Part shown: piece after piece, positions 48,690-61,166 of the stretch | How the letters are laid out: each line of letters starts with the position of its first letter | Position numbering within the stretch: the first letter of the stretch is position 1 | Assembly (NCBI GenBank): GCA_963833985.1 | Contig: CAWIAD010000001.1 | Location: 1,760,001-1,824,000, forward strand | DNA: 64,000 nt | Source of the DNA: an uncultured Planctomycetaceae bacterium | GTDB taxonomy: Bacteria > Planctomycetota > Planctomycetia > Isosphaerales > Isosphaeraceae | Reading direction: 5' to 3' | Notes under the pieces: generated by a model | Seen by the model: only the letters and a program-made list of their open reading frames with translations | What the model was told of the DNA's origin: nothing | The model's database searches: none | Position numbers and translations under genes: made by a program

Positions 48690-51600
48690 TCATCGATGAA
48701 ACCTGAACATAATTGGTACGCATTGCCAGTGCGCTGAATGCCGGTCCCCGCGGATGCGGGCTGGCGGACTGAAGCCGCCGGGTCGCGCCGTGTCCGGGTC
48801 GGTCGGCGATCTTTGAGCTCGTCTTGCCGGATCCCACGAGGACGGGACGCTTGAACCGAGACAGCCGGCCCGGCGCGGCTGCGGGCGGGTCGCCTCCGGT
48901 GCCGGGGCTGGTGGACGTGGAAAAGATCGGGCTGCCCCGCGCGGGATGGCGGGCACCCAGATACCGCTGTGGATCGGCGCCACGGGCGGACCGCCGTTGC
49001 CGCCATTGCCGGCGTTCGCGGTACCGACAATGGTCTGCGGGGCGAAGACCTTGTTGTGCACCCCTTGCAGCTCGGCCACGAAGTCCCCGCCGTTGATCCC
49101 ATTGCCGGATGGGAATGCGCCGTAAAACTCGCCGTCCAGGTGGTTGCCGGCCAGGTCCTGCACCGAGGCGTTGCCGCTGCTCGAATCGCGGATCGTGAAC
49201 AGGTAATACCCGCCGCGCAGCATCGCCCCGCTGTTGAACGTCACGGCCACGTCGTAGGCGTTGGGAATGGTGGGATCGGGGGTGTCGGTGATCGTGGTCG
49301 CGACCCATTTGCCCGGATAGGCCTTGTTGGCGTGCACCTTGGTCAACTGGTAATTGGCCGAATCGAGGATGCCGGGCAGCCAGACGCCCGAGGGAGTGGC
49401 ACCAGGGTCCTTGATGATGTAATCCACCTGCCCGTTCAGCCGGTTGAAGAACATCCCGGCGATGACGGGCCCATGCGTGTCCACCAGGAGGTTCGCCGTA
49501 ATCACGGCCGGAGCCGCGGTGTGGGTCACTCCGAACTGGTCGACCGCGGTGGCGGTGATCTGGTAACGGCCGTCCGCAAGTACCACGCCGGATGTGATCT
49601 TCCAGGCGCCGTCGCCTCCGGCCTGCACCTGGCCGATGACCATTGGGCTGCCGCCGGGCAGGGACGTGGCGAACAGGGTCACGTGCGAGAGTGGCTCGGA
49701 GGTGCCAGAGAAGTCGGGCTGGGTGACGTCCGTCGTGTCCAGCGTGCCGGTGGCCAGGCCGCTGTCGGCACTGGGATCGAGGGTCCCGCCCAGCGCGATC
49801 GGGTTGTCGGCGACGGTCGCCGTGTTGGTCAGGGTCAGCTTCGCTCCTTCGGTGTCCACGACGAAGACCTCGATGGCGTACGAGCCCGCGCCGCCGTTCA
49901 CGCCGGAATCGGCATAGGTGTGCGAGCCGCTCACGAGGAACGCGGTGCCGACGCCGCCCGGCTGGGTGATCGTGCCGGCCGAGAGCGGCGTGCCGTCACC
50001 CCAGTAGATCGACGCGACGAAGTCGCTCTGAGGGGCCGTGGGGTTGCTGTTGGCAAAGGACGCCACGGTCCCGTGGAACAGAGGGGGTGCGTACACGGGA
50101 ACGGGAAACAGAGCGGCCTCGACGGTGCTCACCACCGGCTGCACCGGCGCGGCTGCCAGCGCTGCGTCCGCGATGAAGGCCGTGCCGGAGAACACCGTCT
50201 CGGCTCCGCCCGCATCCCTCGCGATGACCGTGTAAGCGTACTTTCCTGCCTCGGCATACGTGTGCGCCGCACGCACGCTGAACACCACCCCGGCGGGCGA
50301 GCCGCTCGCGGACAGGTTTGCGGCCGTGAGGGCCTCTGGAGGCGTTCCGTCACCCCAGTTCACGGCAATCGAAGCAGGGGAGGTGGTGAAGTCGGCGAGG
50401 GTGGCGCCCGGGTTGGCATCGGTGAAGGTGCCCAGCAGGACGGCTCCCGTGGAGCTGCCCTCGATGCCGGTGATCGCCGTTCCGTTGGAGCTGGAAAGCG
50501 GGGCGTCGAGCACGGTGGCCAGTGCCGCGCCGGGTGAGCCGGCCGCCGGGGTGGTCGTCGTCGCGCCGGGGTTGTCGACGATCTGCACCGGTACACCGCC
50601 AGCGGGCGTGAAGCTGCGCGTGCTCCCCAGGTCGGTGATGACCACGCTGATCGGGTAGGGCGGGTTCGCCGCGGTCTCCTCGGCGTAGGTGTGGCTGCCG
50701 AAGACCTGGAAGATCACCTGGCCACTCGCGTCGGGCCCCGTCTGTACGATCGTGCCGGCCGAAGGGGCGGTGCCGTCTCCCCAGTCGATGGTGGCGACGA
50801 AATTCGAGGCACTTCCCAGCACCGGGGGCGGTACGCCGTCACTGAACTGGAATGTGCCCACCAGAGCGCTGGAGAATGGCAATCCCTCCACTGCGCTGGT
50901 GATCGCCGCACCCGTGCTGGTCAAGCTGTCCAGGGCATGAATCACGCTCACCTGCTGGATGCCGGTGTAGCCAACCGGTACCGGAGTGGCGACGGGAATG
51001 TTCACCTGCGCCGCGGTGATCATGGAAGACTGCACGACCTGGTTCTTCGCGTCGACCACAAGCGTGTTGCTGCCGGCCTGGCCATCGACGCTGATCGCGG
51101 TCAGGCCGGTCGGAGTCGTGCTGTTGTTGATGGCGAAGGTGTCGTCGCCGTTGCCTCCCTGGAGCGTGAGCGTGGTCTTGTGTGAGAACTCGAGCGACTC
51201 GAAGTTATCCACCGTCACCATGCCCGTGCTGTCGCCGTTGTAAGGGGCCGACGAATTGCCGCTGTTGGGGCCGGCCTCGTAGTTGATGGTGTTGTTCGAG
51301 GCACTGCCGACAACGGTGAGTGGCGCGGGGACGTTGTCGTAGACGGGAGCGAGGTTCTGGAAGTTGATTGTCTGGGTGCCACCCGGCCCGGTGATGACGT
51401 CGCTTCCCTGCCCGGGGTTGGCGAAGACCGAGTACGTGTCGCTGGTTTCGGCCGTCCCTCCCGTCTGGAGAAGCTGAAGGCTGTTGCTGCCGGTCCCGCC
51501 GTCATACTGGATGCCGCCCGAGAGGCCAAGCAGGCTCTGGCTGTCATCCACCGTCATCAGATCGTTGCCAGCGCCGCTGTTGAAGGTGAACTGGTTGATG

Positions 51601-54274
51601 TTGCTGAACGAATAGGCCGGCGAGCCGTCGAAGGTCATGCTCGCCGAGGCCGAGCCGGTCGGCGTGAGCGCCAGGGTATCGTTTCCACTCGTCCCCAGGA
51701 CGATCATCTGGTCGCCCGGTGCGCCCGGAGATCCCCCCCGCTGAAGCTGATGGGCGTGTTCACCACGCCGTTGCCCTCGTTGATGGTCACCGCGTTGTTG
51801 TTGATATCGCCGACGATCGCAATCGGCGCCGACGAGTTGTTGGCGTAGGTCGCCACGACGGTGCTTGTCCCCGTCACCAGCACCTGCACGTTGGCGGAAT
51901 TGAGCGGGTCCACCTGGATGGTCACGTTCTCATCGGTGCTGCCGAGCGCCACCACGGCCGCCGGTGACGAGGGGATGCCGCTGGCCGTGACGATCACCGA
52001 ACTGTAGTCGGAGATCGTCTTGCCGGTGGGAAGCGCGAACTGGACGCTCTGCGGAGTGCTCCCGCCGGCCACGCCGGTGCTGCTCCAGTTCGAGGTCCGC
52101 GCGTAGGTGACTTTCCCGCTCGAATCGGTGAGCTGGACGATCGGGTAGTTGGTCGCCATGGTGGCCTCGTCGCCGAACGAGCCGCCTTCGGAAATGCCCG
52201 TGAGCTGCGTGCCGGTCATCGTGTAGTTGCTGCCGCCGTTGCTGGCAATGCCCGTGATGACGGGCCGCCAGGCTGCCTGGGGCGAACCGGACGGCGTGTA
52301 GATCTGGATGCCGCCGGGGCCGGCCTGGTTGTCCAGCAGCGCCTGGCCGCTGGGCAAGGCAATCATGAACAGGTAATCGCTGTTGTCGCTGATGCCGCCG
52401 GAGGGAGTCACGTTCGTGTAAGTCCCCGTGGTCGGGTCGAACTCGTAGACGTAGCTGGGTTGCGGGAACGTGTAGCCGCCCCCGGCGCCCAGGCCGCCCA
52501 GCGGCGAGAGATCCAGCAGGATGTCGCCGTTGGCCATCATGCAGCCGGGAGCGTCGTCCATGCTGAGCCGCGACGACGACCAGGTGCCTCCGCTCGTGTA
52601 GGTGCCGTTGCCTTGCGGGCCCACGAGCTGGAACGAGCCGGACTGGAGGTTGGTGATCGTCCAGCTGCCGTTGGCCGCCGTGTTTCCCCCCACGCCGGAG
52701 ATGCTCACGAGCTGGCCGTTGCTCAGCCCCGTGGTGCTCGACGTGTTCACGGTGATGCCCGCGAACCAGGTGCCTCCGCCGGTGTAGGCTCCATTGCCCG
52801 TGGAGCCCTTCAATTGAAACGACGTGGAGTTCAGGTTCTGGATCGTGAAATTGCCGTTGGCCGCGGCATTTCCCGTGACCCCGGTGACGGTCACCAGGTC
52901 GCCGTTGCTCAGGCCGGCGGTGCTCGGAGCCGTGATCGTGATGGGCGACGTGTTGCTGGCCCCGGTGATCGTGCCGCTCACGTTGCTGGCCCCGGTGATC
53001 GTGCCGCTCACCGGCAGCGTGGGCTGGTCCGGGCCGGCCGTCCAGAGGTCGGTCGAGGGGTTGTAGATGGCCGTGTGGCCGTTGCCGCCAAAGAAGATGG
53101 CGTTGCCGTTGGGGAGCAGGAAGGCCGGCCCCAGTTCGTCACCCTGGCCGTCTCCGGGCGAAGGCAAGGCTGCGCTGGGTGGGGGCGGGCCGTCGCTCAG
53201 CAACGACGGCGGATTGGTCGGGCTGAGGTTGCTGGCGTTCACCCATTTGTCCTGGGACGGGATGTACCGCTGGGCCTGGAACACGCCGTTGCTGATGCTC
53301 GAATAGATGTCGTAGGAGAGAATGCTGCCGTCGGGCAGCTTCAGCCAGGTTTCCTCATCACTCCGGTCGCCGTTCACCTTGCTGCCGGCGGTCGGCGTCC
53401 AGGTGTTCGTGGCCGGAGAATAAATGTAGGTGCTCGGACTGTTGAAGTAGCCGGCCAGGATGTTGCCGCCGGGGAGGGTCTCGATCGGATCGTCGCCGAA
53501 CTGAGAGACGCCGAATGACCCTCCGCTCGTGTAGCTGCCGTTGCCCGTGGACCCGACAAGCTGGAAGGTCGTGGCGGTCAGGCTGGCGATGGTCCAGGTG
53601 CCATTGGCCGCGGTGTTCCCACCCACGCCGGAGATGGTCACCTGCTCGCCACTCAGCAGCCCGGCGGTGTTCACCGCGGTGATGGTGATCGGTGCGGTGT
53701 TGCTGGCCCCGGTGAGCTTGTTCGACGTGAAGCGGATGCTCGTGGGAGGCGTCGGGATGTTCGCCGTCCGGGCCCAACTTCCCGGCCCGCCCGTGGTCGA
53801 GGGCGTGAAGATCTCCGACGTGCCGGTGAACGGGTCGGGAGACGTGTATTCGCCGCCGATCGTGAACAGGTTGCCCGACGGCAAGACCGCGGAGGTGTTG
53901 AAGAGCCGCTGCTCCGCCGGCGTGAGCCAGGTCCCGGAATTCGCGAGCGCGGACCAGGTTCCGTTGACGTAGTTCCCCGTTGCAATGGACGTCCCCTGAA
54001 AGGTGTTGCCGGTGGCACCAGGGGTCAGGTCGTACCAGGTGTTCGACGAGGCGTTCTGCCCCGACTGCACCATCACCGAGCCATCGGATAGAATCGCCAG
54101 CGCCTGCATGTACGTGGGCCCGGACCCCGGGTTGGTGGCGGCAAGAGCCTGCCAGGTGCCGGGCGTGGTCAACACCAGGCGGTCCTCCAGGATCTCCAGC
54201 CGGAACCGGCGGCCTCGCCTGGGCTGGACATGAACCTTGCTGCGCGTGGATCGGATTGCCGGGCGGAAGCTCAT
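48690..54274 (-). CDS. Giant secreted protein (~1850 aa): LEPR-XLL-type motif, kelch-like propeller with inserted repeats, PKD-like and Ig-like domains (frameshifts ~51730, ~48940)
   Basis: LEILEDRLVL; kelch-like AVLPSGNLFTIGGE/LLPNGNAIFFGG; three GLxxG..VxISGVGGNTAANG repeats; three IxWGDGT..HTYA repeats; DLAGNHLDGEF..PSGNG tail. ORFs 51704-54274 and 48690-51707 join at a G-run. Confidence 0.8.
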
Positions 54275-54834
54275 GACGTGTGTCCTTTCCTTAGGTGCAA
54301 GAACGATGCGCGCTCGCTGAGCGCACAGAGCCAGCGTGCTCAATGGAAGCGGCGAGACGACCCCGCCAGTCCGGGAGCAGCCGATGTGGGCACTTCACTG
54401 CCAGCCGGCCGGCCGAGATTTCAGGAGCATCTGCAAGAGCGTGTGTCGCCGGCCAGGTCGAGCCTTAACAACAATTCAAGAAAGCTCGTGCGAACCCGTC
54501 ATCGATTGCCGTCAAAACCCGATCCCCAGGCTGGCCCCTTCCGCTACAACCGTGAAATGCCAACCCCAGCTCGAGTAAACCCAGGAAGACTCGATCCAGA
54601 CCGGACGACCCTGCCGAAAGGTGATCTTAAAGTGGATGATTTAGGGTAAATAAGAATTCTGGGAAAAGCAAAGTCTTTTTCATGGAGATTCTTTGCCCGG
54701 CCTGGGAGGCTCCGACGGCTGCCGGCCGAGAACTGGCTCGCCTTTGCGGGCATCGCGCCGGAAAGTTGTATTCGAGCGCTGGGTCTGCTGCACTAGAGGT
54801 GCAGTAACAGACTGGGAACCGGGAGGACGTTTCG

Positions 54835-56694
54835 ATGACCGGCCGCGGGCTCGATACAGTTCGCCGCGAACTCGACGTGTTGTTGCACGTGGGCACGCTT
54901 GCCGGCGCCGCGGACGAGCAACTGCTCGAGCAGTTCACGAGCGGGGCGGCGCGCGTGCAGCAGGTCGCGTTCGAGGCGCTGGTGCAGCGTCACGGCCCGA
55001 TGGTGCTGGGCGTCTGCCGCCGGATATTGAGCGACTGGCAAGCCGCCGAGGACGCTTTTCAGGCGACCTTCCTGGTGCTCAGCATGAAGGCGCAAACGGT
55101 CCGTCGCCGCGGCTCGCTGGCAGCCTGGCTGCACGCCGTGGCATCCCGGGTGGCACGGCGCGCCCTGGCGGCGAAACGCAGGCGCTGGGAGTTGCCGCTG
55201 GCCGTCGAGCCCCCGGCCCGCGCTCGTGGCGATGCCGACCTGGCGGAGGTGCAAGCGATTCTTGACGATGAGCTCGCACGGCTGCCGGAAAAGTATCGCC
55301 GGCCGGTCGTACTCTGTTACCTGGAAGGGCGCACGCAAGAGGAAGCAGCCCGGCTGCTCGGGTGGAGCAAGGGGACGGTTTCGGGCCGGCTGGCACGCGC
55401 CAAGGAGGTGCTGCGCGGCCGCCTCGCTCGCCGCGGGCTCTCCTCTGCCGGGGCCGTCATCACAGCCTGCCTGACGCCGGAAACCGCTTCGGCCGGCGTC
55501 CCGGCGCCCCTCTTGCTCAGAACGGTTCAGGCCGCGACCGCCCTGGGGTTGGCCGTCATGGAGAACAGCCCGGCCGCGGGGCGGGCCATGGTGCTGGCGC
55601 GTGGAACCGCGGGCGCAATGGCCCTGCGGCCGCTCAGGTCGGTCCTCTCCGTGCTCCTGGTGGGCCTGGGCGCCACCGCGGTGGCAGGGCCCCTCTACTG
55701 GAGGTTCCACGTCGCCGGTTCCATGAAGCCGCCAGCCCCTGGCTCGCGCCTGGGCGAGGAACTCGCGGACACCGCGTCGATCGTCGGTGTCGCCTACACG
55801 CCGGACGGAGCCGCCGTGATCGCGCTGCGAAGCGACGGCCAGTTGCGCATCGATCGCCTTGCGAGTACGTCGGACGTGAGCCTCATCGATCTGTTCGCGG
55901 GCGAGCAGGGCGTGACCGCTGCCGCGGTGCGCGAGCTCGCACTCTCGGCCGACGGCACGCGGGTCGCCGCGATCGGCACGGTGCGCGTGGCCTCGCGCGG
56001 GCGGCCGATCGACGGAGTCTGGCTCTGGAACCTGCCGGATCGCCGGCTGGTGCGGAGGATCGAGTTCGGCGGCACCGCCGTGGACGCGCTGGCGTTTTCT
56101 CCCGAGGGTGCTAGCCTGGCCACCGGCGATCATGCGGGTCAGATCCAGCTCTGGGACATCGCCAGTGGTGAAGAGACCTTGAGGCTCAAGCTGGGCGACA
56201 AGCCGGTGCGCGGCATCGCCTTCTCGCCGGACGGGATGACGCTGGCCGCGGCCGGCCCCGAGAGTGGCGTGCAGCTCTGGGACCTGGGCGGAGGCCGTTC
56301 CCTGGGCCCCGCGCAGGCCGATCCGCAGCCCGAGGCGTCTCATCCCTGCTTCTCTCCGGACGGGAGCTTGATTGCCTTCGGCACGCCCGGGTCCGGCGTA
56401 TTCGTCGCGGAGCGGGATGGCGGCCAGGTCCGCTGCCGCGTGGATGTCGGCCATGAAGACTTCCTGGCCCTGGCATTCGCGCCGGACAGCCGGTTCCTGG
56501 CCGTGGGCGGCGGCCGCGCGATCACGGTGGTGCGCACCGCGAACAGCCAGGTCCTGTGGCGGGCCGGCCTGGAGCGCTCCCTCGGGCCGGGCAGCCTGGC
56601 GTACGCGCCCGACGGCAAGACCATCGCCGCGGGCCAGGGTGGCAGCTTGACGTTGCTCGATGCCGCGACCGGCGCCTTGCTGGAGAATCGCTGA
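54835..56694 (+). CDS. ECF sigma factor with transmembrane segment and C-terminal WD40 repeats
   Basis: RHGPMVLGVCRR, AEDAFQATFLVL (sigma2); LPEKYR..VLCYLEG..GTVSGRLARA (sigma4); hydrophobic segment; repeated AFSPDG...LWD. Confidence 0.93.
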   Translation: MTGRGLDTVRRELDVLLHVGTLAGAADEQLLEQFTSGAARVQQVAFEALVQRHGPMVLGVCRRILSDWQAAEDAFQATFLVLSMKAQTVRRRGSLAAWLHAVASRVARRALAAKRRRWELPLAVEPPARARGDADLAEVQAILDDELARLPEKYRRPVVLCYLEGRTQEEAARLLGWSKGTVSGRLARAKEVLRGRLARRGLSSAGAVITACLTPETASAGVPAPLLLRTVQAATALGLAVMENSPAAGRAMVLARGTAGAMALRPLRSVLSVLLVGLGATAVAGPLYWRFHVAGSMKPPAPGSRLGEELADTASIVGVAYTPDGAAVIALRSDGQLRIDRLASTSDVSLIDLFAGEQGVTAAAVRELALSADGTRVAAIGTVRVASRGRPIDGVWLWNLPDRRLVRRIEFGGTAVDALAFSPEGASLATGDHAGQIQLWDIASGEETLRLKLGDKPVRGIAFSPDGMTLAAAGPESGVQLWDLGGGRSLGPAQADPQPEASHPCFSPDGSLIAFGTPGSGVFVAERDGGQVRCRVDVGHEDFLALAFAPDSRFLAVGGGRAITVVRTANSQVLWRAGLERSLGPGSLAYAPDGKTIAAGQGGSLTLLDAATGALLENR

Positions 56695-56763
56695 ACCCGC
56701 GTGCCGCTTCGAGTACGATGGTCTCCGTGCAACCGGGATGGTTCCCGCTGAAAGGGTTTCAAG

Positions 56764-58992
56764 ATGCTTGCCACGATGCTGCTTTCCGCCTGTGTGCTCG
56801 CCGCTTCCGCACCGGCCGCGGACCCTCCAGCGGAAGCCCCCCGTCTGAGGGCCTATGAGCAGGCCAGGGCGGCCGCCGGCCATGATGCCGACGCCCAGGT
56901 GAAGCTCGCCCTCTGGTGCGAGGCCCATGGGCTTTCAGCCGAGCGCATCAAGCACCTGACGCTGGCGACGCTCGCGGATCCTTCCAACCTGGTGGCGCAC
57001 GGGCTTCTGGGGCTGATCCAGTACCACGGAAAGTGGCAGCGACCGGACCAGATCAGCCGCGACGCACAGCAGGACGCCGCCCGCAAGGCCGTGCTCGATG
57101 AGTACCTCGAGCGGCGGGCGCACACGCCGGACAAACCCGATGAGCAGTGGAAGCTGGCCCTCTGGTGCGAGCAGCACGGGCTGGCCGATCAGGCCACGGC
57201 CCATCTGCACCAGGTGCTGCGCCGCGACCCCCGGCGCGACGCGGCCTGGAAACGGCTCGGCTACCGGAGGCAATCCGGCCGCTGGGTGAAGCCGGAGCTC
57301 GTCGCGGCACAGAAGGCGGAGAACGAAGCGCAGGGCAGGGCAGACAGGTACTGGAAACCGAAACTCGAACGCTGGCGTGACGCGCTGTCGGGCCGTGACA
57401 AGGCGAAGCAGGCCGCGGCCGACGAAGCCCTTGCTGCCGTGACCGAACCGCGCGCCGTGCCCGCGGTGTGGTCGGCGTTCGCCCAGGGGAGCCTGGCGCA
57501 GCAGCAAATGGCCATCCGCACGCTGGGCCAGATCGATTCACCCGCCGCCTCCCGCGCCCTCGCCCTGCTGGCGGTCTTCTCGGGCCATGCGCAGGTCCGC
57601 GGCGACGCGATCGCCACCCTGCGCCGGCGCGATCCGCGTGAGTTCGCCGACATGCTCATCAGCCTGATCCGCGAGCCCATCCAGTTCGAGGTGCGGCCGG
57701 TGGGCGGGCCGGGAAGCCCCGGCGAGCTGTTCATCAAGGGTCGCGGCGACAAGGCCAACCTGAAGCGAGTCTACGCGCCCCCACCTGCCCCCGAGGTATC
57801 TCTTCAGCCCGGTGACCGCGTGGTGTACGACGACGCCGGCATGCCTGTCATCCAGCGGACAACGTCAGTCCTGGCGCAATCAAGTTTTATGCACCCGGCG
57901 GATCTCTTTGCCGGGCAGACTCCGGCTGTGAGCGCGGAACAAAAGCAGAAGATCATAGGACTGCTTTCCAGCAGTGGTCTTGGGGCCCACGCACAGCAGA
58001 TTGGTCAGCAGCTCATCTCCGCATACCAGAACCAGCCACAGTTCGGACTGAACGTCTTTTATCAGTTCGCCGCCTTGAATGGTGCGCTGAACGACCCGAT
58101 CTTGCCGACGACCCGGTTATCGTTCACCTTCGGCCAGGGCGTGCTCATCCCCGTTGGCAGCATGCAGCTCGAGGCGCAAAGGACCGCCGTGGCTGCCGCC
58201 CAGCAGCTCCAGCGCGACGCCGGCCAGTTGCGGGCCTACAACGATTCCCTCCGCGAGCTGAATGACCGCGTCGTCCCTGTTCTGAAGGATGTCTCTGGTC
58301 TCGACCTGGGCACGAATCAGGGCGACTGGCAGAAATGGTACACCGACCTGGTCGGCTACCAGGCGCTCTCCGCGAGCACCACCGAGCCGCCCACGGTCAT
58401 CGAGCAGGTGCCGCTCGATTACCAGCCGCAGCCGGTGCCCATCGGTCAATTCATCGGGCCGATTGCGGTCCAGCGCATGAGTTGCTTCGGCGCGGGCACG
58501 CTGGTGCGAACGCTCGGCGCCGTGCGGCCGATCGAGGAGCTTGCCGTGGGCGACCAGGTCCTCTCTCAGAGCACGCGGACGGGTGCCCTGGCCTACCGGC
58601 CCATCCTCGTCACGCACCACAACCCGCCCAGCAAGACCTTCGAGATCTCGCTGGGCCGCGAGACGCTTGTCAGCAGCGCTTTTCACCGATTCTGGAAAGC
58701 GGGGCAGGGCTGGGTGATGGCACGCGAGCTGAAGTCCGGCGACCTGGTCCGGACCCTGAACGGAGTCGTCCGGATGGCGTCGATCGGTCCCGGCAAGATC
58801 GTTCCGGTGTTCAATCTCGACGTGGCCGAAGATGCCGATTTCTTCGTCGGTCACACCGCTGCGCTGGTCCATGACAACACGCTGCCTGATCCGCGGCAGC
58901 TTGCCTTTGACGCGCTGGCGGACCCGGCCGCGCACGAGACAGAGCGACCGGTCGAGCCGGCACGCGGCAACCCCGGGGGCCCTGTACGATGA
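56764..58992 (+). CDS. Secreted helical-repeat protein with C-terminal Hint domain, paralogue 1
   Basis: Signal peptide; 2x KLALWCExHGL repeats; HEAT-like region; Hint 58483-58878 (CFGAGTLV...SAFHRFW...VFNLDV...VHDN) followed by a 37-aa tail starting with Thr. Confidence 0.88.
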   Translation: MLATMLLSACVLAASAPAADPPAEAPRLRAYEQARAAAGHDADAQVKLALWCEAHGLSAERIKHLTLATLADPSNLVAHGLLGLIQYHGKWQRPDQISRDAQQDAARKAVLDEYLERRAHTPDKPDEQWKLALWCEQHGLADQATAHLHQVLRRDPRRDAAWKRLGYRRQSGRWVKPELVAAQKAENEAQGRADRYWKPKLERWRDALSGRDKAKQAAADEALAAVTEPRAVPAVWSAFAQGSLAQQQMAIRTLGQIDSPAASRALALLAVFSGHAQVRGDAIATLRRRDPREFADMLISLIREPIQFEVRPVGGPGSPGELFIKGRGDKANLKRVYAPPPAPEVSLQPGDRVVYDDAGMPVIQRTTSVLAQSSFMHPADLFAGQTPAVSAEQKQKIIGLLSSSGLGAHAQQIGQQLISAYQNQPQFGLNVFYQFAALNGALNDPILPTTRLSFTFGQGVLIPVGSMQLEAQRTAVAAAQQLQRDAGQLRAYNDSLRELNDRVVPVLKDVSGLDLGTNQGDWQKWYTDLVGYQALSASTTEPPTVIEQVPLDYQPQPVPIGQFIGPIAVQRMSCFGAGTLVRTLGAVRPIEELAVGDQVLSQSTRTGALAYRPILVTHHNPPSKTFEISLGRETLVSSAFHRFWKAGQGWVMARELKSGDLVRTLNGVVRMASIGPGKIVPVFNLDVAEDADFFVGHTAALVHDNTLPDPRQLAFDALADPAAHETERPVEPARGNPGGPVR

Positions 58993-61166
58993 CTGTGAAC
59001 TGGCTGGCGACCTGTCTTCTCTGCCTGGCCTTTGAACCGCCCCAGACACCGGCGCCCCTGGCGCCCGCCGGCCCGGATCTCGCCGCATACCAGCAGGCCC
59101 GGGCCCGGGCCGGCCATGATGCCGACGCCCAGGTGAAGCTCGCCCTCTGGTGCGAGGCCCATGGGCTTTCAGCCGAGCGCATCAAGCACCTCACGCTGGC
59201 GACGCTGAGCGATCCGGCCAATGCGGCCGCGCGCGGCTTGCTCGGCCTGGTGCTGTACCAGGGCAAGTGGCAGCGACCCGACCAGATCAGCCGCGAGATC
59301 GCCGTCGAACCCGCACGCAGGGCGCTGGTGGACGAGTACCTGCGGAGGCGCGCCGCGACACGCGACCGGGCCGACGATCAGTGGAAGCTGGCGCTCTGGT
59401 GCCAGCAGCAGGGGCTGGGCGAGCAGGCGGTCGCTCATCTCTACCGGGTGGTCCAGCTCGACCCGCACCGCGATGCGGCCTGGAGACGCCTGGGTTACCG
59501 GAAGACCGGCGCGCGCTGGGCCAGGCCCGAGCTGCTCATCGCCGAGAAGGCCGAGCTGGAAGCCCAGGTGCGGGCCAACCGGTTCTGGAAGCCCCGGCTC
59601 GAGCACCTCCGCGCTGCGCTGGGCGAGCACAACCCGGCGAAGAAATCCATGGCCGTGCACGCCCTGGAGCAGATCACCGATCCGCGTGCCGTGCCCATGG
59701 TCTGGGCCGTTCTCGCGCGGGGCAGCCAGGCCGATGAGCAAACGGCCGTCCAGCTGCTGGGGCAGATCGACGCCCCGGGCGCCGCGCGTGCACTTTGCCT
59801 GCTGAGCCTCTTCAGTCCCTTCCCGGACATCCGCGGCTCGGCCGTGGCGATCCTCCGCCGGCGCGATCCCCGCGAGTTCGCCGCGCTGCTGGTCGGCATG
59901 ATCCGCGAACCTATGAAGTTCCAGGCCAGTCCCGTGGGTGGGCCGGGCGTTCCGGGCATGCTCATGGTGCGGGGCGACGCGTTTGACACCCAGCGCCGCT
60001 ACAGCCCGCCGCCACCGCCCGTGTACATTCCGGCCTTCAACGACACGGTCTTCCCCGACGCCTCCGGTCAGCCGGTCATCTTCCACCCGCTCGGTTTCTA
60101 TTCGGCGGCGGTTGGCGACGACATCCTGGGCCGCATCCAGGCCCGGGTGAGCCAGGCGGAACGTCTGCCGGCGCTGCTGGCCCAGGCGGGGGCCGGGCAG
60201 GCGGCGGTCCAGGCCGGCGAGCAGGTTGCTGCCCAGGCCCGCACCCAGGGCGCAAGCCAGACGGCCGCAACCCGGAACCTGATCGGCCAGAGCGGTCCCA
60301 CGGCCGGGGCGCCGCATGGCTTTGAAACCGTGCAGCTCGGCGTTCCTTATCTTCAGATCCCCATCGGCCAGATGATGGCCGCGGCACAGGCCACCGCCAT
60401 GCTCGCCCAGCGCCAGCTCGAGGCCGACGTCCGGTCGATCCACGAATTCAACGCCGTCGTCACCGCGTGGAACGCGCGGGCGCTCTCGGTCCTGACCGAG
60501 GTCTCCGGCCGGGACCTCGGCTCGGATCGACAAGCCTGGGACCGCTGGCTGACTGACCTCCAGGGCTACGCGTACGTCTCTCCCACGCAGCCGGTCGACA
60601 AGCCCACCGTGGTCGAGGAGGTCCCCGTGTCGGCCGTCCCGCAGCCATCGGTCGTCCTGAACGCGATCGAGGGTCCGATCGCGAACATCCCGCGGCATTC
60701 CTGCTTCGCCGCGGGCACCCTGGTGCACACCCTGAGCGGACCGCGGCCGATCGAGGAGCTGAGCGCCGGCGACCTGGTACTGAGCCGTGACACGGCAACC
60801 GGCACGCTCCGCTTCGCGCCCGTGGTCGTCGTCTACCACAACCCGCCCAATGCGACGAAGCGGATCGAGACCGAGAGCGGATCGATTGTCGCCACGGCCA
60901 TCCACCGGTTCTGGAAGGCGGGCTCCGGCTGGGTGATGACACGCGAGCTGAAGCCCGGCGACAGGGTGCGCACGATTGCTGGCAGCCTGGTGGTTCGGTC
61001 GGTCCAAACGGACAGCGTTCAAAACGTTTTCAACCTTCAGGTCGCCGACAGCGACAGCTTCTTCGTGGGCACCGAGGGCGTGCTGGCCCACGACAACAGC
61101 CTGGTGAACCCTCCGGAGCATCCATTCGATCGCGTGCCAGCCCTGGAAGACATCGCCCGACCCTGA
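58989..61166 (+). CDS. Secreted helical-repeat protein with C-terminal Hint domain, paralogue 2
   Basis: Same architecture; ATGA overlap; Hint 60702-61097 (CFAAGTLV...TAIHRFW...VFNLQV...AHDN) followed by a 22-aa tail starting with Ser. Confidence 0.88.
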   Translation: MTVNWLATCLLCLAFEPPQTPAPLAPAGPDLAAYQQARARAGHDADAQVKLALWCEAHGLSAERIKHLTLATLSDPANAAARGLLGLVLYQGKWQRPDQISREIAVEPARRALVDEYLRRRAATRDRADDQWKLALWCQQQGLGEQAVAHLYRVVQLDPHRDAAWRRLGYRKTGARWARPELLIAEKAELEAQVRANRFWKPRLEHLRAALGEHNPAKKSMAVHALEQITDPRAVPMVWAVLARGSQADEQTAVQLLGQIDAPGAARALCLLSLFSPFPDIRGSAVAILRRRDPREFAALLVGMIREPMKFQASPVGGPGVPGMLMVRGDAFDTQRRYSPPPPPVYIPAFNDTVFPDASGQPVIFHPLGFYSAAVGDDILGRIQARVSQAERLPALLAQAGAGQAAVQAGEQVAAQARTQGASQTAATRNLIGQSGPTAGAPHGFETVQLGVPYLQIPIGQMMAAAQATAMLAQRQLEADVRSIHEFNAVVTAWNARALSVLTEVSGRDLGSDRQAWDRWLTDLQGYAYVSPTQPVDKPTVVEEVPVSAVPQPSVVLNAIEGPIANIPRHSCFAAGTLVHTLSGPRPIEELSAGDLVLSRDTATGTLRFAPVVVVYHNPPNATKRIETESGSIVATAIHRFWKAGSGWVMTRELKPGDRVRTIAGSLVVRSVQTDSVQNVFNLQVADSDSFFVGTEGVLAHDNSLVNPPEHPFDRVPALEDIARP

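Follow-up and report, generated by a model that had tools for sequence, protein, structure and literature searches.

What would a C-terminal Hint domain do when no toxin follows it? The question is raised by a locus in a stretch of 64,000 nt from an uncultured Planctomycetaceae bacterium (GCA_963833985.1, contig CAWIAD010000001.1, positions 1,760,001–1,824,000, forward strand), here called the window. In it, a gene for an extracytoplasmic function (ECF) sigma factor with a WD40 propeller, P0003, is followed after 69 bp by two genes that share an ATGA overlap and encode the paralogues P0001 and P0002 (48% identical), each ending in a Hint domain and a short tail (Table 1). A sequence-only reading of this DNA had described the three open reading frames (ORFs), the gap and the translationally coupled paralogues, all of which are present as claimed, and had proposed that the cargo of the Hints is the large N-terminal part and not a toxin to be released. 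Our analysis agrees with that proposal: the tails are short (326 of 333 relatives have no more than 45 aa there, with a median of 25 aa and a range of 14–45 aa for the conserved tail), Asp replaces the C-terminal Asn, and a clade of Hint-less relatives ends near the predicted scissile position. We propose, at a probability of roughly 45%, that this His–Asp Hint acts in a Hedgehog-like manner and would transfer the N-terminal part to a nucleophile of the cell envelope.

Both Hints exceed the PT-HINT cut-off of 27.7 (P0001, 41.3; P0002, 54.8). Cys574 and Cys572 had been correctly named, as had the stretches of 37 and 22 aa after the Asn of an H-D-N motif; the earlier figure of exactly 132 aa per domain is obtained by counting up to that Asn, but the domain proper ends one residue before it. 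Asp704 and Asp702 are assigned to the position of the terminal intein Asn because the HMMER alignment to 2LWY, a type A bacterial intein-like (BIL) domain, places VLAHD of the window opposite VLVHN, and because the structural alignments of complete inteins have ranges that stop at residue 702 of the P0002 model; the Hint is therefore 131 aa long, Asn is residue +1 and Ser or Thr residue +2. Residues were counted over 495 non-identical Hint segments (effective number 383; segments with more than 25% gaps dropped), pooled from all collected proteins and loci L008–L072 and L078–L137. The terminal (G7) position is Asp in 489 of them and Asn in none. Cys1 is present in 488, the block B His in 489 and the block B Thr/Ser in 491, Asn stands at F4 in 492, the penultimate residue is His in 481 and residue −1 is Ser or Ala in 441. 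Position +1 is Asn in 393, Phe in 37 and Ser in 16, with Tyr and Asp also occurring, and +2 is Ser or Thr in 448. An independent set of 146 representatives sharing less than 50% identity gives Asp in 144, the following Asn in 112 and Cys1 in 140. Near-invariance extends beyond the standard catalytic positions of inteins, to R640, W642, W648, R652, R661 and, in the tail, F713 (485/495) and D714 (488/495). The conserved Pro-Phe-Asp (PFD) tail, mostly coil in the model, likely belongs to the processing module as an accessory element. Among 27 non-self matches, the five inspected comprise four planctomycete control Hints, which end in His–Asn and carry an extra domain, and a distant true relative from another family (L073), which keeps H-D-V-S.

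The relatives without a Hint point to the product. They were sampled as the best 120 of 257 matches, the counts being made on 121 proteins, and neither Hint nor PFD tail occurs in any of these. They end in D-S/T in 99 cases, with Asp second to last in 114, and the C-terminus lies 18–24 residues past a Y-x-P anchor in 106 of 114. For Hint-bearing proteins, the distance from the anchor to the scissile residue (−1) is 19–28 residues in 107 of 175, with a mode of 22; the anchor pattern frequently catches an earlier motif. The two positions agree to within a few residues, not exactly. In the model of a Hint-less protein (pLDDT 88.5), the chain stops in the last strand also present in P0002, where it spans residues 556–565. 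The C-terminus of the Hint-less clade thus falls close to the predicted cut site of the Hint, so that the N-terminal part is a complete protein by itself and the probable product of cleavage at Ser/Cys1. In a quick tree, the Hint-less proteins form a single clade (support 100) among Hint-bearers, on an unresolved backbone. This nesting, together with the Hint of the distant relative, suggests that the clade arose by Hint loss. Fold searches with the Hint-less model returned generic TPR/HEAT rows only (Foldseek best E 4e-3; best Z 8.3); they barely probed stalk and head and are no proof of a new fold.

In sequence and fold, the window Hints are closest to type A BILs and PT-HINT domains (PF07591; 2LWY; 8W20; MafB), with Z 19.2 and a root-mean-square deviation (rmsd) of 1.5 over 132 aligned residues, and a TM score of 0.88 to 2LWY. 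Cys1, the block B T/S-x-x-H, the F4 Asn, the penultimate His and a secreted host are also shared. However, those domains end in His–Asn and, in PT-HINT toxins, are followed by a toxin and an immunity gene, whereas the window family ends in His–Asp, has only its conserved tail and carries its variable region before the Hint. The Hedgehog Hog domain (1AT0, 6TYY; Z 17.7, rmsd 1.7, 129 aligned) likewise lies at the C-terminus behind a secreted cargo, export being predicted for the window proteins. Further features in common are a residue other than Asn at the terminal intein position, conservation of a polar residue at position 46 and an accessory segment that follows the Hint. Alignment of 1AT0 residues 258–402 with P0002 572–704 places Hedgehog C143 near Asp702, as judged from the range ends only. 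The Hog domain differs in having Asp46, where the window family has His, Arg or Lys, in its Cys near G7 and Gly at −1, where the window family has Asp and Ser, and in its unrelated cargo. The window Hints are predicted to work most like a Hog domain, yet they have neither Asp46 nor the sterol recognition region (SRR) that mark its members.

Position 46, the site of the Hedgehog general base, is His in 394 of the 495 segments; a weak alignment (E 0.038) pairs it with the His of 6TYY, the D46H structure. The D46H variant is described as active, with a wider substrate range, in the accessible text of PMC9163320. We regard this match as only a lead.

Other Hint classes resemble the family less. 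Type B BILs (Hint_2, PF13403) share extracellular hosts and the expectation of cleavage uncoupled from splicing; they lack an intein-like block G, whereas block G of the window aligns to 2LWY, and the Hint_2 matches in the window cover profile positions 2–33 and 2–38 of 147 (the first 32–37 residues). Type C BILs of predatory bacteria are likewise expected to cleave without splicing and also reside in extracellular hosts. No description of this Hint family or of the function of such a module, which the sequence-only reading had also been unable to name, was found in the literature searched, mostly outside subscription journals.

In the mechanism that we propose, a TPR/HEAT–stalk–head protein, likely exported, would carry the His–Asp Hint at its C-terminus. 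A thioester would quite probably form at Ser/Cys1 by N–S acyl shift; the N-terminal part of 570 residues would then pass to an outside nucleophile in the envelope, where the protein would be fixed by the end of its last β-strand, and the Hint would depart in one piece with the PFD tail. Transfer is favoured over other fates because of the large number of invariant or nearly invariant residues outside the standard catalytic set. In the sigma factor fusions described below, the TPR/HEAT–Hint protein would form the extracytoplasmic domain, with the sigma factor anchored in the membrane, and the window ECF-WD40 protein, encoded by a separate upstream gene, may control or sense the Hint proteins.

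Several observations weigh against this proposal. Cys1 is absent from six of the 146 diverse members. At position 46, 62 of the 495 segments have Arg and 10 have Lys, L073 has Arg, and the His recurs in the umbrella-toxin Hint 8W20 and is therefore not diagnostic. No subdomain of the size of the helical SRR of Hog follows the window Hints, given the median tail of 25 aa. Tail positions 706–709 covary with block B residues 636–638 (z up to 9.5; higher-ranked pairs within 538–551 are likely gap artefacts), but this signal tracks two Hint lineages (4 changes against 15.6 after shuffling) and is confounded by descent. Inteins ending in Asp can cyclise, according to the accessible text of PMC4031507. 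The free C-terminus of the Hint-less clade fits plain hydrolysis at least as well as transfer. Finally, a hopanoid acceptor draws no support from the neighbourhood: a squalene-hopene cyclase gene and two neighbours (L002:3130–7065), which we take to be hopanoid genes, converge on the second Hint pair of the genome, whose second gene ends in Y-D-F-S, but this group flanks L002 alone among L001–L072 and the window, and the link was rejected as evidence.

The two lineages just mentioned correspond to Hint subtypes of which the window holds one each, S-A-F-H with Pro in the tail (58675–58686) and T-A-I-H without it (60894–60905). The subtype clusters on the Hint tree and not on that of the N-terminal body, both trees being poorly resolved. 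Hint and tail move as a unit, and the absence of clustering on the N-terminal tree hints at a swapping of modules. Obligate pairing of both subtypes in arrays was considered and rejected (15 of 41 arrays mixed, 19 expected).

A serious, if unlikely, alternative is that the Hint is a self-removing pro-domain, its thioester being hydrolysed by water to leave a free C-terminal Ser, so that the Hint would only time or chaperone maturation. This would agree with the conserved D-S/T end of the Hint-less clade at the matching strand and with the Ser at the end of the second Hint-less gene of the genome, as well as with the dominance of cleavage products described for type A BILs in the accessible text of PMC4031507. 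It leaves unexplained, however, the near-invariant extra residues and the PFD tail, and also why the Hint should be retained in up to 17 matches per genome.

We consider it distinctly improbable that the Hint is instead excised by Asp cyclisation and the tail joined to the N-terminal part, through aminolysis by Asn+1 or through Ser/Thr+2. The invariant His–Asp and the prevalence of Ser/Thr at +2 would suit such splicing; the accessible text of PMC4031507 describes inteins with a C-terminal Asp or Gln, which share Cys1 and the His–Asp end, and reports that type A BILs can splice by aminolysis, and that of PMC12054796 describes a branched intermediate at Hedgehog C143, the residue placed near Asp702. 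Yet the +1 residue is variable and not a nucleophile, in contrast to the Cys, Ser or Thr of class 1 inteins, and the host is not a conserved housekeeping protein, as it is in the Asp- and Gln-ending inteins. Moreover, alleles with both flanks joined, in which the PFD tail would sit on a Hint-less body, number 0 of 121 among the sampled Hint-less relatives, and the tail type follows the Hint lineage and not the N-terminal body, on poorly resolved trees.

A further possibility, put forward by the sequence-only reading, is that the locus is a module dedicated to signalling, where the N-terminal part, once processed, would be the ligand of the WD40 sensor of the neighbouring sigma factor. The ECF-WD40 protein itself, with its predicted membrane anchor, is as that reading described it: P0003 matches Sigma70_r2 (45.8 bits), r4_2 (52.1 bits) and TIGR02937 above their cut-offs, as well as WD40, with one hydrophobic segment between the sigma and WD40 parts. 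It thus has the sigma2 and sigma4 regions, predicted membrane segment and extension by which planctomycete ECFs with C-terminal extensions are recognized; their group label would be ECF57 / ECF01-Gob. One predicted transmembrane segment and a variable extension after sigma2–sigma4 are also what the accessible texts of PMC7671368 and PMC7826278 describe, and Hint as an ECF extension has no mention in their main text, although figure 3D or the supplements could list it. The ECF-WD40 gene and the Hint genes downstream are likely to form one operon.

Across genomes the linkage recurs, in a minority of loci. The comparison covered 101 distinct loci (125 less 24 duplicates), picked by similarity to P0002, which favours synteny with the window. 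An ECF gene lies within 6 kb in 15 of them and is lacking from the other 86; in the genome itself, one of seven loci adjoins an ECF gene and a second lies 2.8 kb from one. Such genes are common, with at least 1203 matches in the 244 Mb of 24 relatives (at least 4.9 per Mb; 6–131 per genome), a lower bound since no more than 136 candidates were scored in each genome. Against a per-genome baseline, 9 of 60 loci have an ECF gene nearby where 3.0 would be expected (P 0.004), and seven remain if the fusion and the syntenic locus are left out (P 0.03); kin are not independent in either test and the baseline is a lower bound. A related ECF-WD40 gene stands directly upstream, on the same strand, in five other loci of the 101: those of L008, L009 and L135 are orthologues of P0003 (49–54% identical), whereas those of L015 and L026 are frameshifted, with propellers 33–36% identical, and precede non-orthologous Hint genes 40–51% identical to those of the window. 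In L061 (2565–5821), an ECF sigma factor and Ser/Thr kinase–WD40 pair lies directly upstream of a two-gene Hint array.

The sigma factor is in some cases fused to the Hint protein through a membrane segment. Such fusions make up 6 of 150 representatives, and a targeted search found 23 among 494 proteins (median identity 46%), 18 of which keep the Cys1 motif and the His–Asp tail as judged by pattern; one, P0403, was confirmed by Pfam. Its bearers, which may share a single origin, cluster on a quick tree (3 changes against 5.8), so that the fusion is to be regarded as old and maintained. It occurs in at least 2 of 121 family genomes (seven candidates scored in each), and the ORFs listed for the roughly 7 kb to each side of the intact fusion of L141 include no unfused copy. 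The ECF connection is real but optional. A module dedicated to signalling nevertheless appears quite unlikely to us: fusions, upstream ECF-WD40 genes, two of them before non-orthologous Hint genes, the excess over baseline and the kinase pair speak for it, but most loci have no ECF gene, fusions are found in few genomes and the neighbouring ECFs bear many kinds of extension, and Pinto and da Fonseca propose, in the accessible text of PMC7671368, that planctomycete sigma2–sigma4 modules gain unrelated extensions by chance insertion.

That the Hint fold might be catalytically silent, a structural or binding domain, is very improbable. The canonical Asn is indeed gone, and in P0178 and a few other representatives, which are likely to be inactive Hints, both Cys1 and the block B His have been lost and the Asp is kept; against this stands the retention of these two residues in nearly all the segments counted above. 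As for an ordinary polymorphic toxin precursor, the above-threshold PT-HINT match, the tandem arrays and the hypervariable region would fit, but this reading is largely refuted and the database name ‘polymorphic toxin-type HINT’ misleads, since tails are short (no domain follows at 207 of 208 Hint ends in the loci), no immunity-like neighbour recurs in 65 loci, the genes 3′ of the window pair encode, as the sequence-only reading had it, neither toxin nor immunity protein (an amidohydrolase, then a PhyH dioxygenase), and the four control Hints end differently.

The N-terminal part that would be processed is built in an ordered series of elements. We infer from N-terminal hydrophobicity alone (KD11 2.35 in P0001 and 2.27 in P0002; of 407 unfused relatives without an internal membrane segment, 389 reach 2.0 or more) that the Hint proteins are exported by Sec, in keeping with the signal peptides recognized earlier; lipoprotein and Tat export were rejected, their patterns occurring in 0 of 372 relatives. 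The P0002 model (pTM 0.58) begins with two TPR-like repeats, to which HEAT-like repeats and then a small sheet are joined. A helix of 48 residues comes next, followed by the head, which consists of strands and a helical hairpin; the last strand and a low-confidence linker lead on to the Hint and a fairly ordered tail. The helical repeats claimed earlier hold for the model and for HEAT_2 in P0002, but HEAT_2 is below cut-off in P0001 and TPR_14 in both proteins. Each TPR-like repeat contains W-C-E (window 59148–59156 and 59397–59405), invariant in 114 of 114 aligned sequences. Column conservation is highest in the Hint (0.64), is 0.54–0.60 in the base and falls to 0.16 in head and last strand, the lengths of which are correlated (rho 0.48, n=124, uncorrected for kinship). 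A membrane β-barrel was rejected on inspection, the long strands not being amphipathic.

Family members were found as 1189 matches among 8000 scored candidates, the named sources being Isosphaeraceae or Isosphaerales, and occur in 50 of 60 genomes of the family of the window, with 1 to 17 each. In the genome itself, seven genes with a Hint are spread over five loci, two of these genes being frameshifted, and there are two Hint-less paralogues; the frameshift-split paralogues (G000:C2:832150–834178 and C2:3770790–3772902) reflect assembly error or decay. Tandem arrays make up 44 of the 101 loci, counted by span. Clusters of such proteins, named automatically, exist in the Atlas, the one cited having 516 members; the sequences are thus already in databases but unexplained. 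Within the window array, the 83 bp shared by the two genes, against at most 27 bp in the orthologous pair of L135, are likely to reflect recent gene conversion. No partner gene is universal in the 65 loci, the commonest neighbours occurring in 8–12; one of them, a 427-codon ORF that lacks a Pfam match and likely encodes a signal peptide (L070:2472–3755, minus strand), is found in 12, upstream of Hint arrays and divergent from them, which may be synteny only. No sigma-70-type promoter was found at the window genes, terminator-like sites were at chance level and PADLOC matched 0 of 4 proteins. On the minus strand at 48690–54343, a pair of ORFs that overlap and match Kelch, E1_FCCH-like and Ig-like domains possibly represents one large frameshift-split secreted protein.

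Table 1. Features of the window locus and of related loci. Positions are those of the window unless preceded by a locus or genome handle.
Feature	Position	Strand	Basis or remark
ECF sigma factor with C-terminal extension, P0003, 619 aa (sigma2, sigma4, predicted membrane segment, WD40 propeller)	54835..56694	+	Pfam/NCBIfam above cut-off
Predicted transmembrane segment, residues 269–287	55639..55695	+	hydrophobic 19-mer, KD 1.9, sole peak >1.5; inferred
WD40 propeller, predicted extracytoplasmic, range start approximate	55777..56691	+	Pfam WD40 62 bits; propeller match residues 363–613; alignment
Hint protein 1, P0001, 742 aa (signal peptide, TPR/HEAT base, stalk, variable head, Hint, tail)	56764..58992	+	
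83-bp block in gene 1, same bases at 59109–59191 in gene 2	56875..56957	+	next longest common block 18 bp
Hint domain of protein 1, Cys574–Asp704, 131 aa (Ser573/Cys574, His619 at position 46, Ser638-x-x-His641, Asn684, His703–Asp704)	58483..58875	+	
Tail of protein 1: Asn+1, Thr+2, then LPDPRQLAFD	58876..58989	+	
Hint protein 2, P0002, 725 aa	58989..61166	+	ATGA overlap; model pLDDT 86.6
Pair of TPR-like repeats, each with the invariant W-C-E, followed by HEAT-like repeats; residues 28–305 of protein 2	59070..59903	+	alignment, model, HEAT_2 28.1 bits
Hypervariable head, residues 345–456 of protein 2, predicted β-strands and helical hairpin	60021..60356	+	conservation 0.16; model
Predicted 48-residue stalk helix, residues 459–506 of protein 2	60363..60506	+	model
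Variable last β-strand and Ser571, predicted new C-terminus after cleavage	60654..60701	+	model, conservation; Hint-less clade stops at matching strand
Hint domain of protein 2, Cys572–Asp702, 131 aa (His617, Thr636-x-x-His639, Asn682, His701–Asp702)	60702..61094	+	fold match to 2LWY
Tail of protein 2, conserved N-S-L-V-x-P-x-x-x-P-F-D	61095..61163	+	pLDDT 77–86
Hint-less paralogue 1 of the same genome	L005:7419-8756	-	heads conserved clade; no Pfam match; GVPGSK turn; D-S/T C-terminus
Hint-less paralogue 2 of the same genome	G000:C2:4202887-4204420	-	C-terminus Ser
Intact ECF sigma–transmembrane–TPR/HEAT–Hint fusion	L141:8036-10963		
ECF sigma–transmembrane–TPR/HEAT–Hint fusion split by a DDE transposase gene	L123:3522-8319		

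It is tempting to speculate further, along a line that we hold to be unlikely as a whole, that the His–Asp Hint attaches a secreted stalk protein covalently, by its tip, to an envelope molecule, which might be a glycan, a neighbouring subunit or a lipid, for example a hopanoid. The fusions would then be sigma factors tethered across the periplasm, self-installing sensors of the envelope, and the window ECF-WD40 protein would read the same structure non-covalently.

Should Hedgehog-like transfer by the His–Asp Hint be correct, the family would constitute a new Hint subtype, with an invariant terminal Asp and a tail of its own, in hundreds of proteins now labelled as toxin precursors without a toxin. 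It would also be a natural bacterial case of Hedgehog-type C-terminal ligation, of relevance to Hint evolution and to protein labelling. An experimentally established signal mechanism for planctomycete membrane-anchored ECFs was not found in the accessible text of the reviews examined, and the sigma fusions offer a direct test of how these proteins receive signals: a single Cys-to-Ala change in a fusion should switch processing off.

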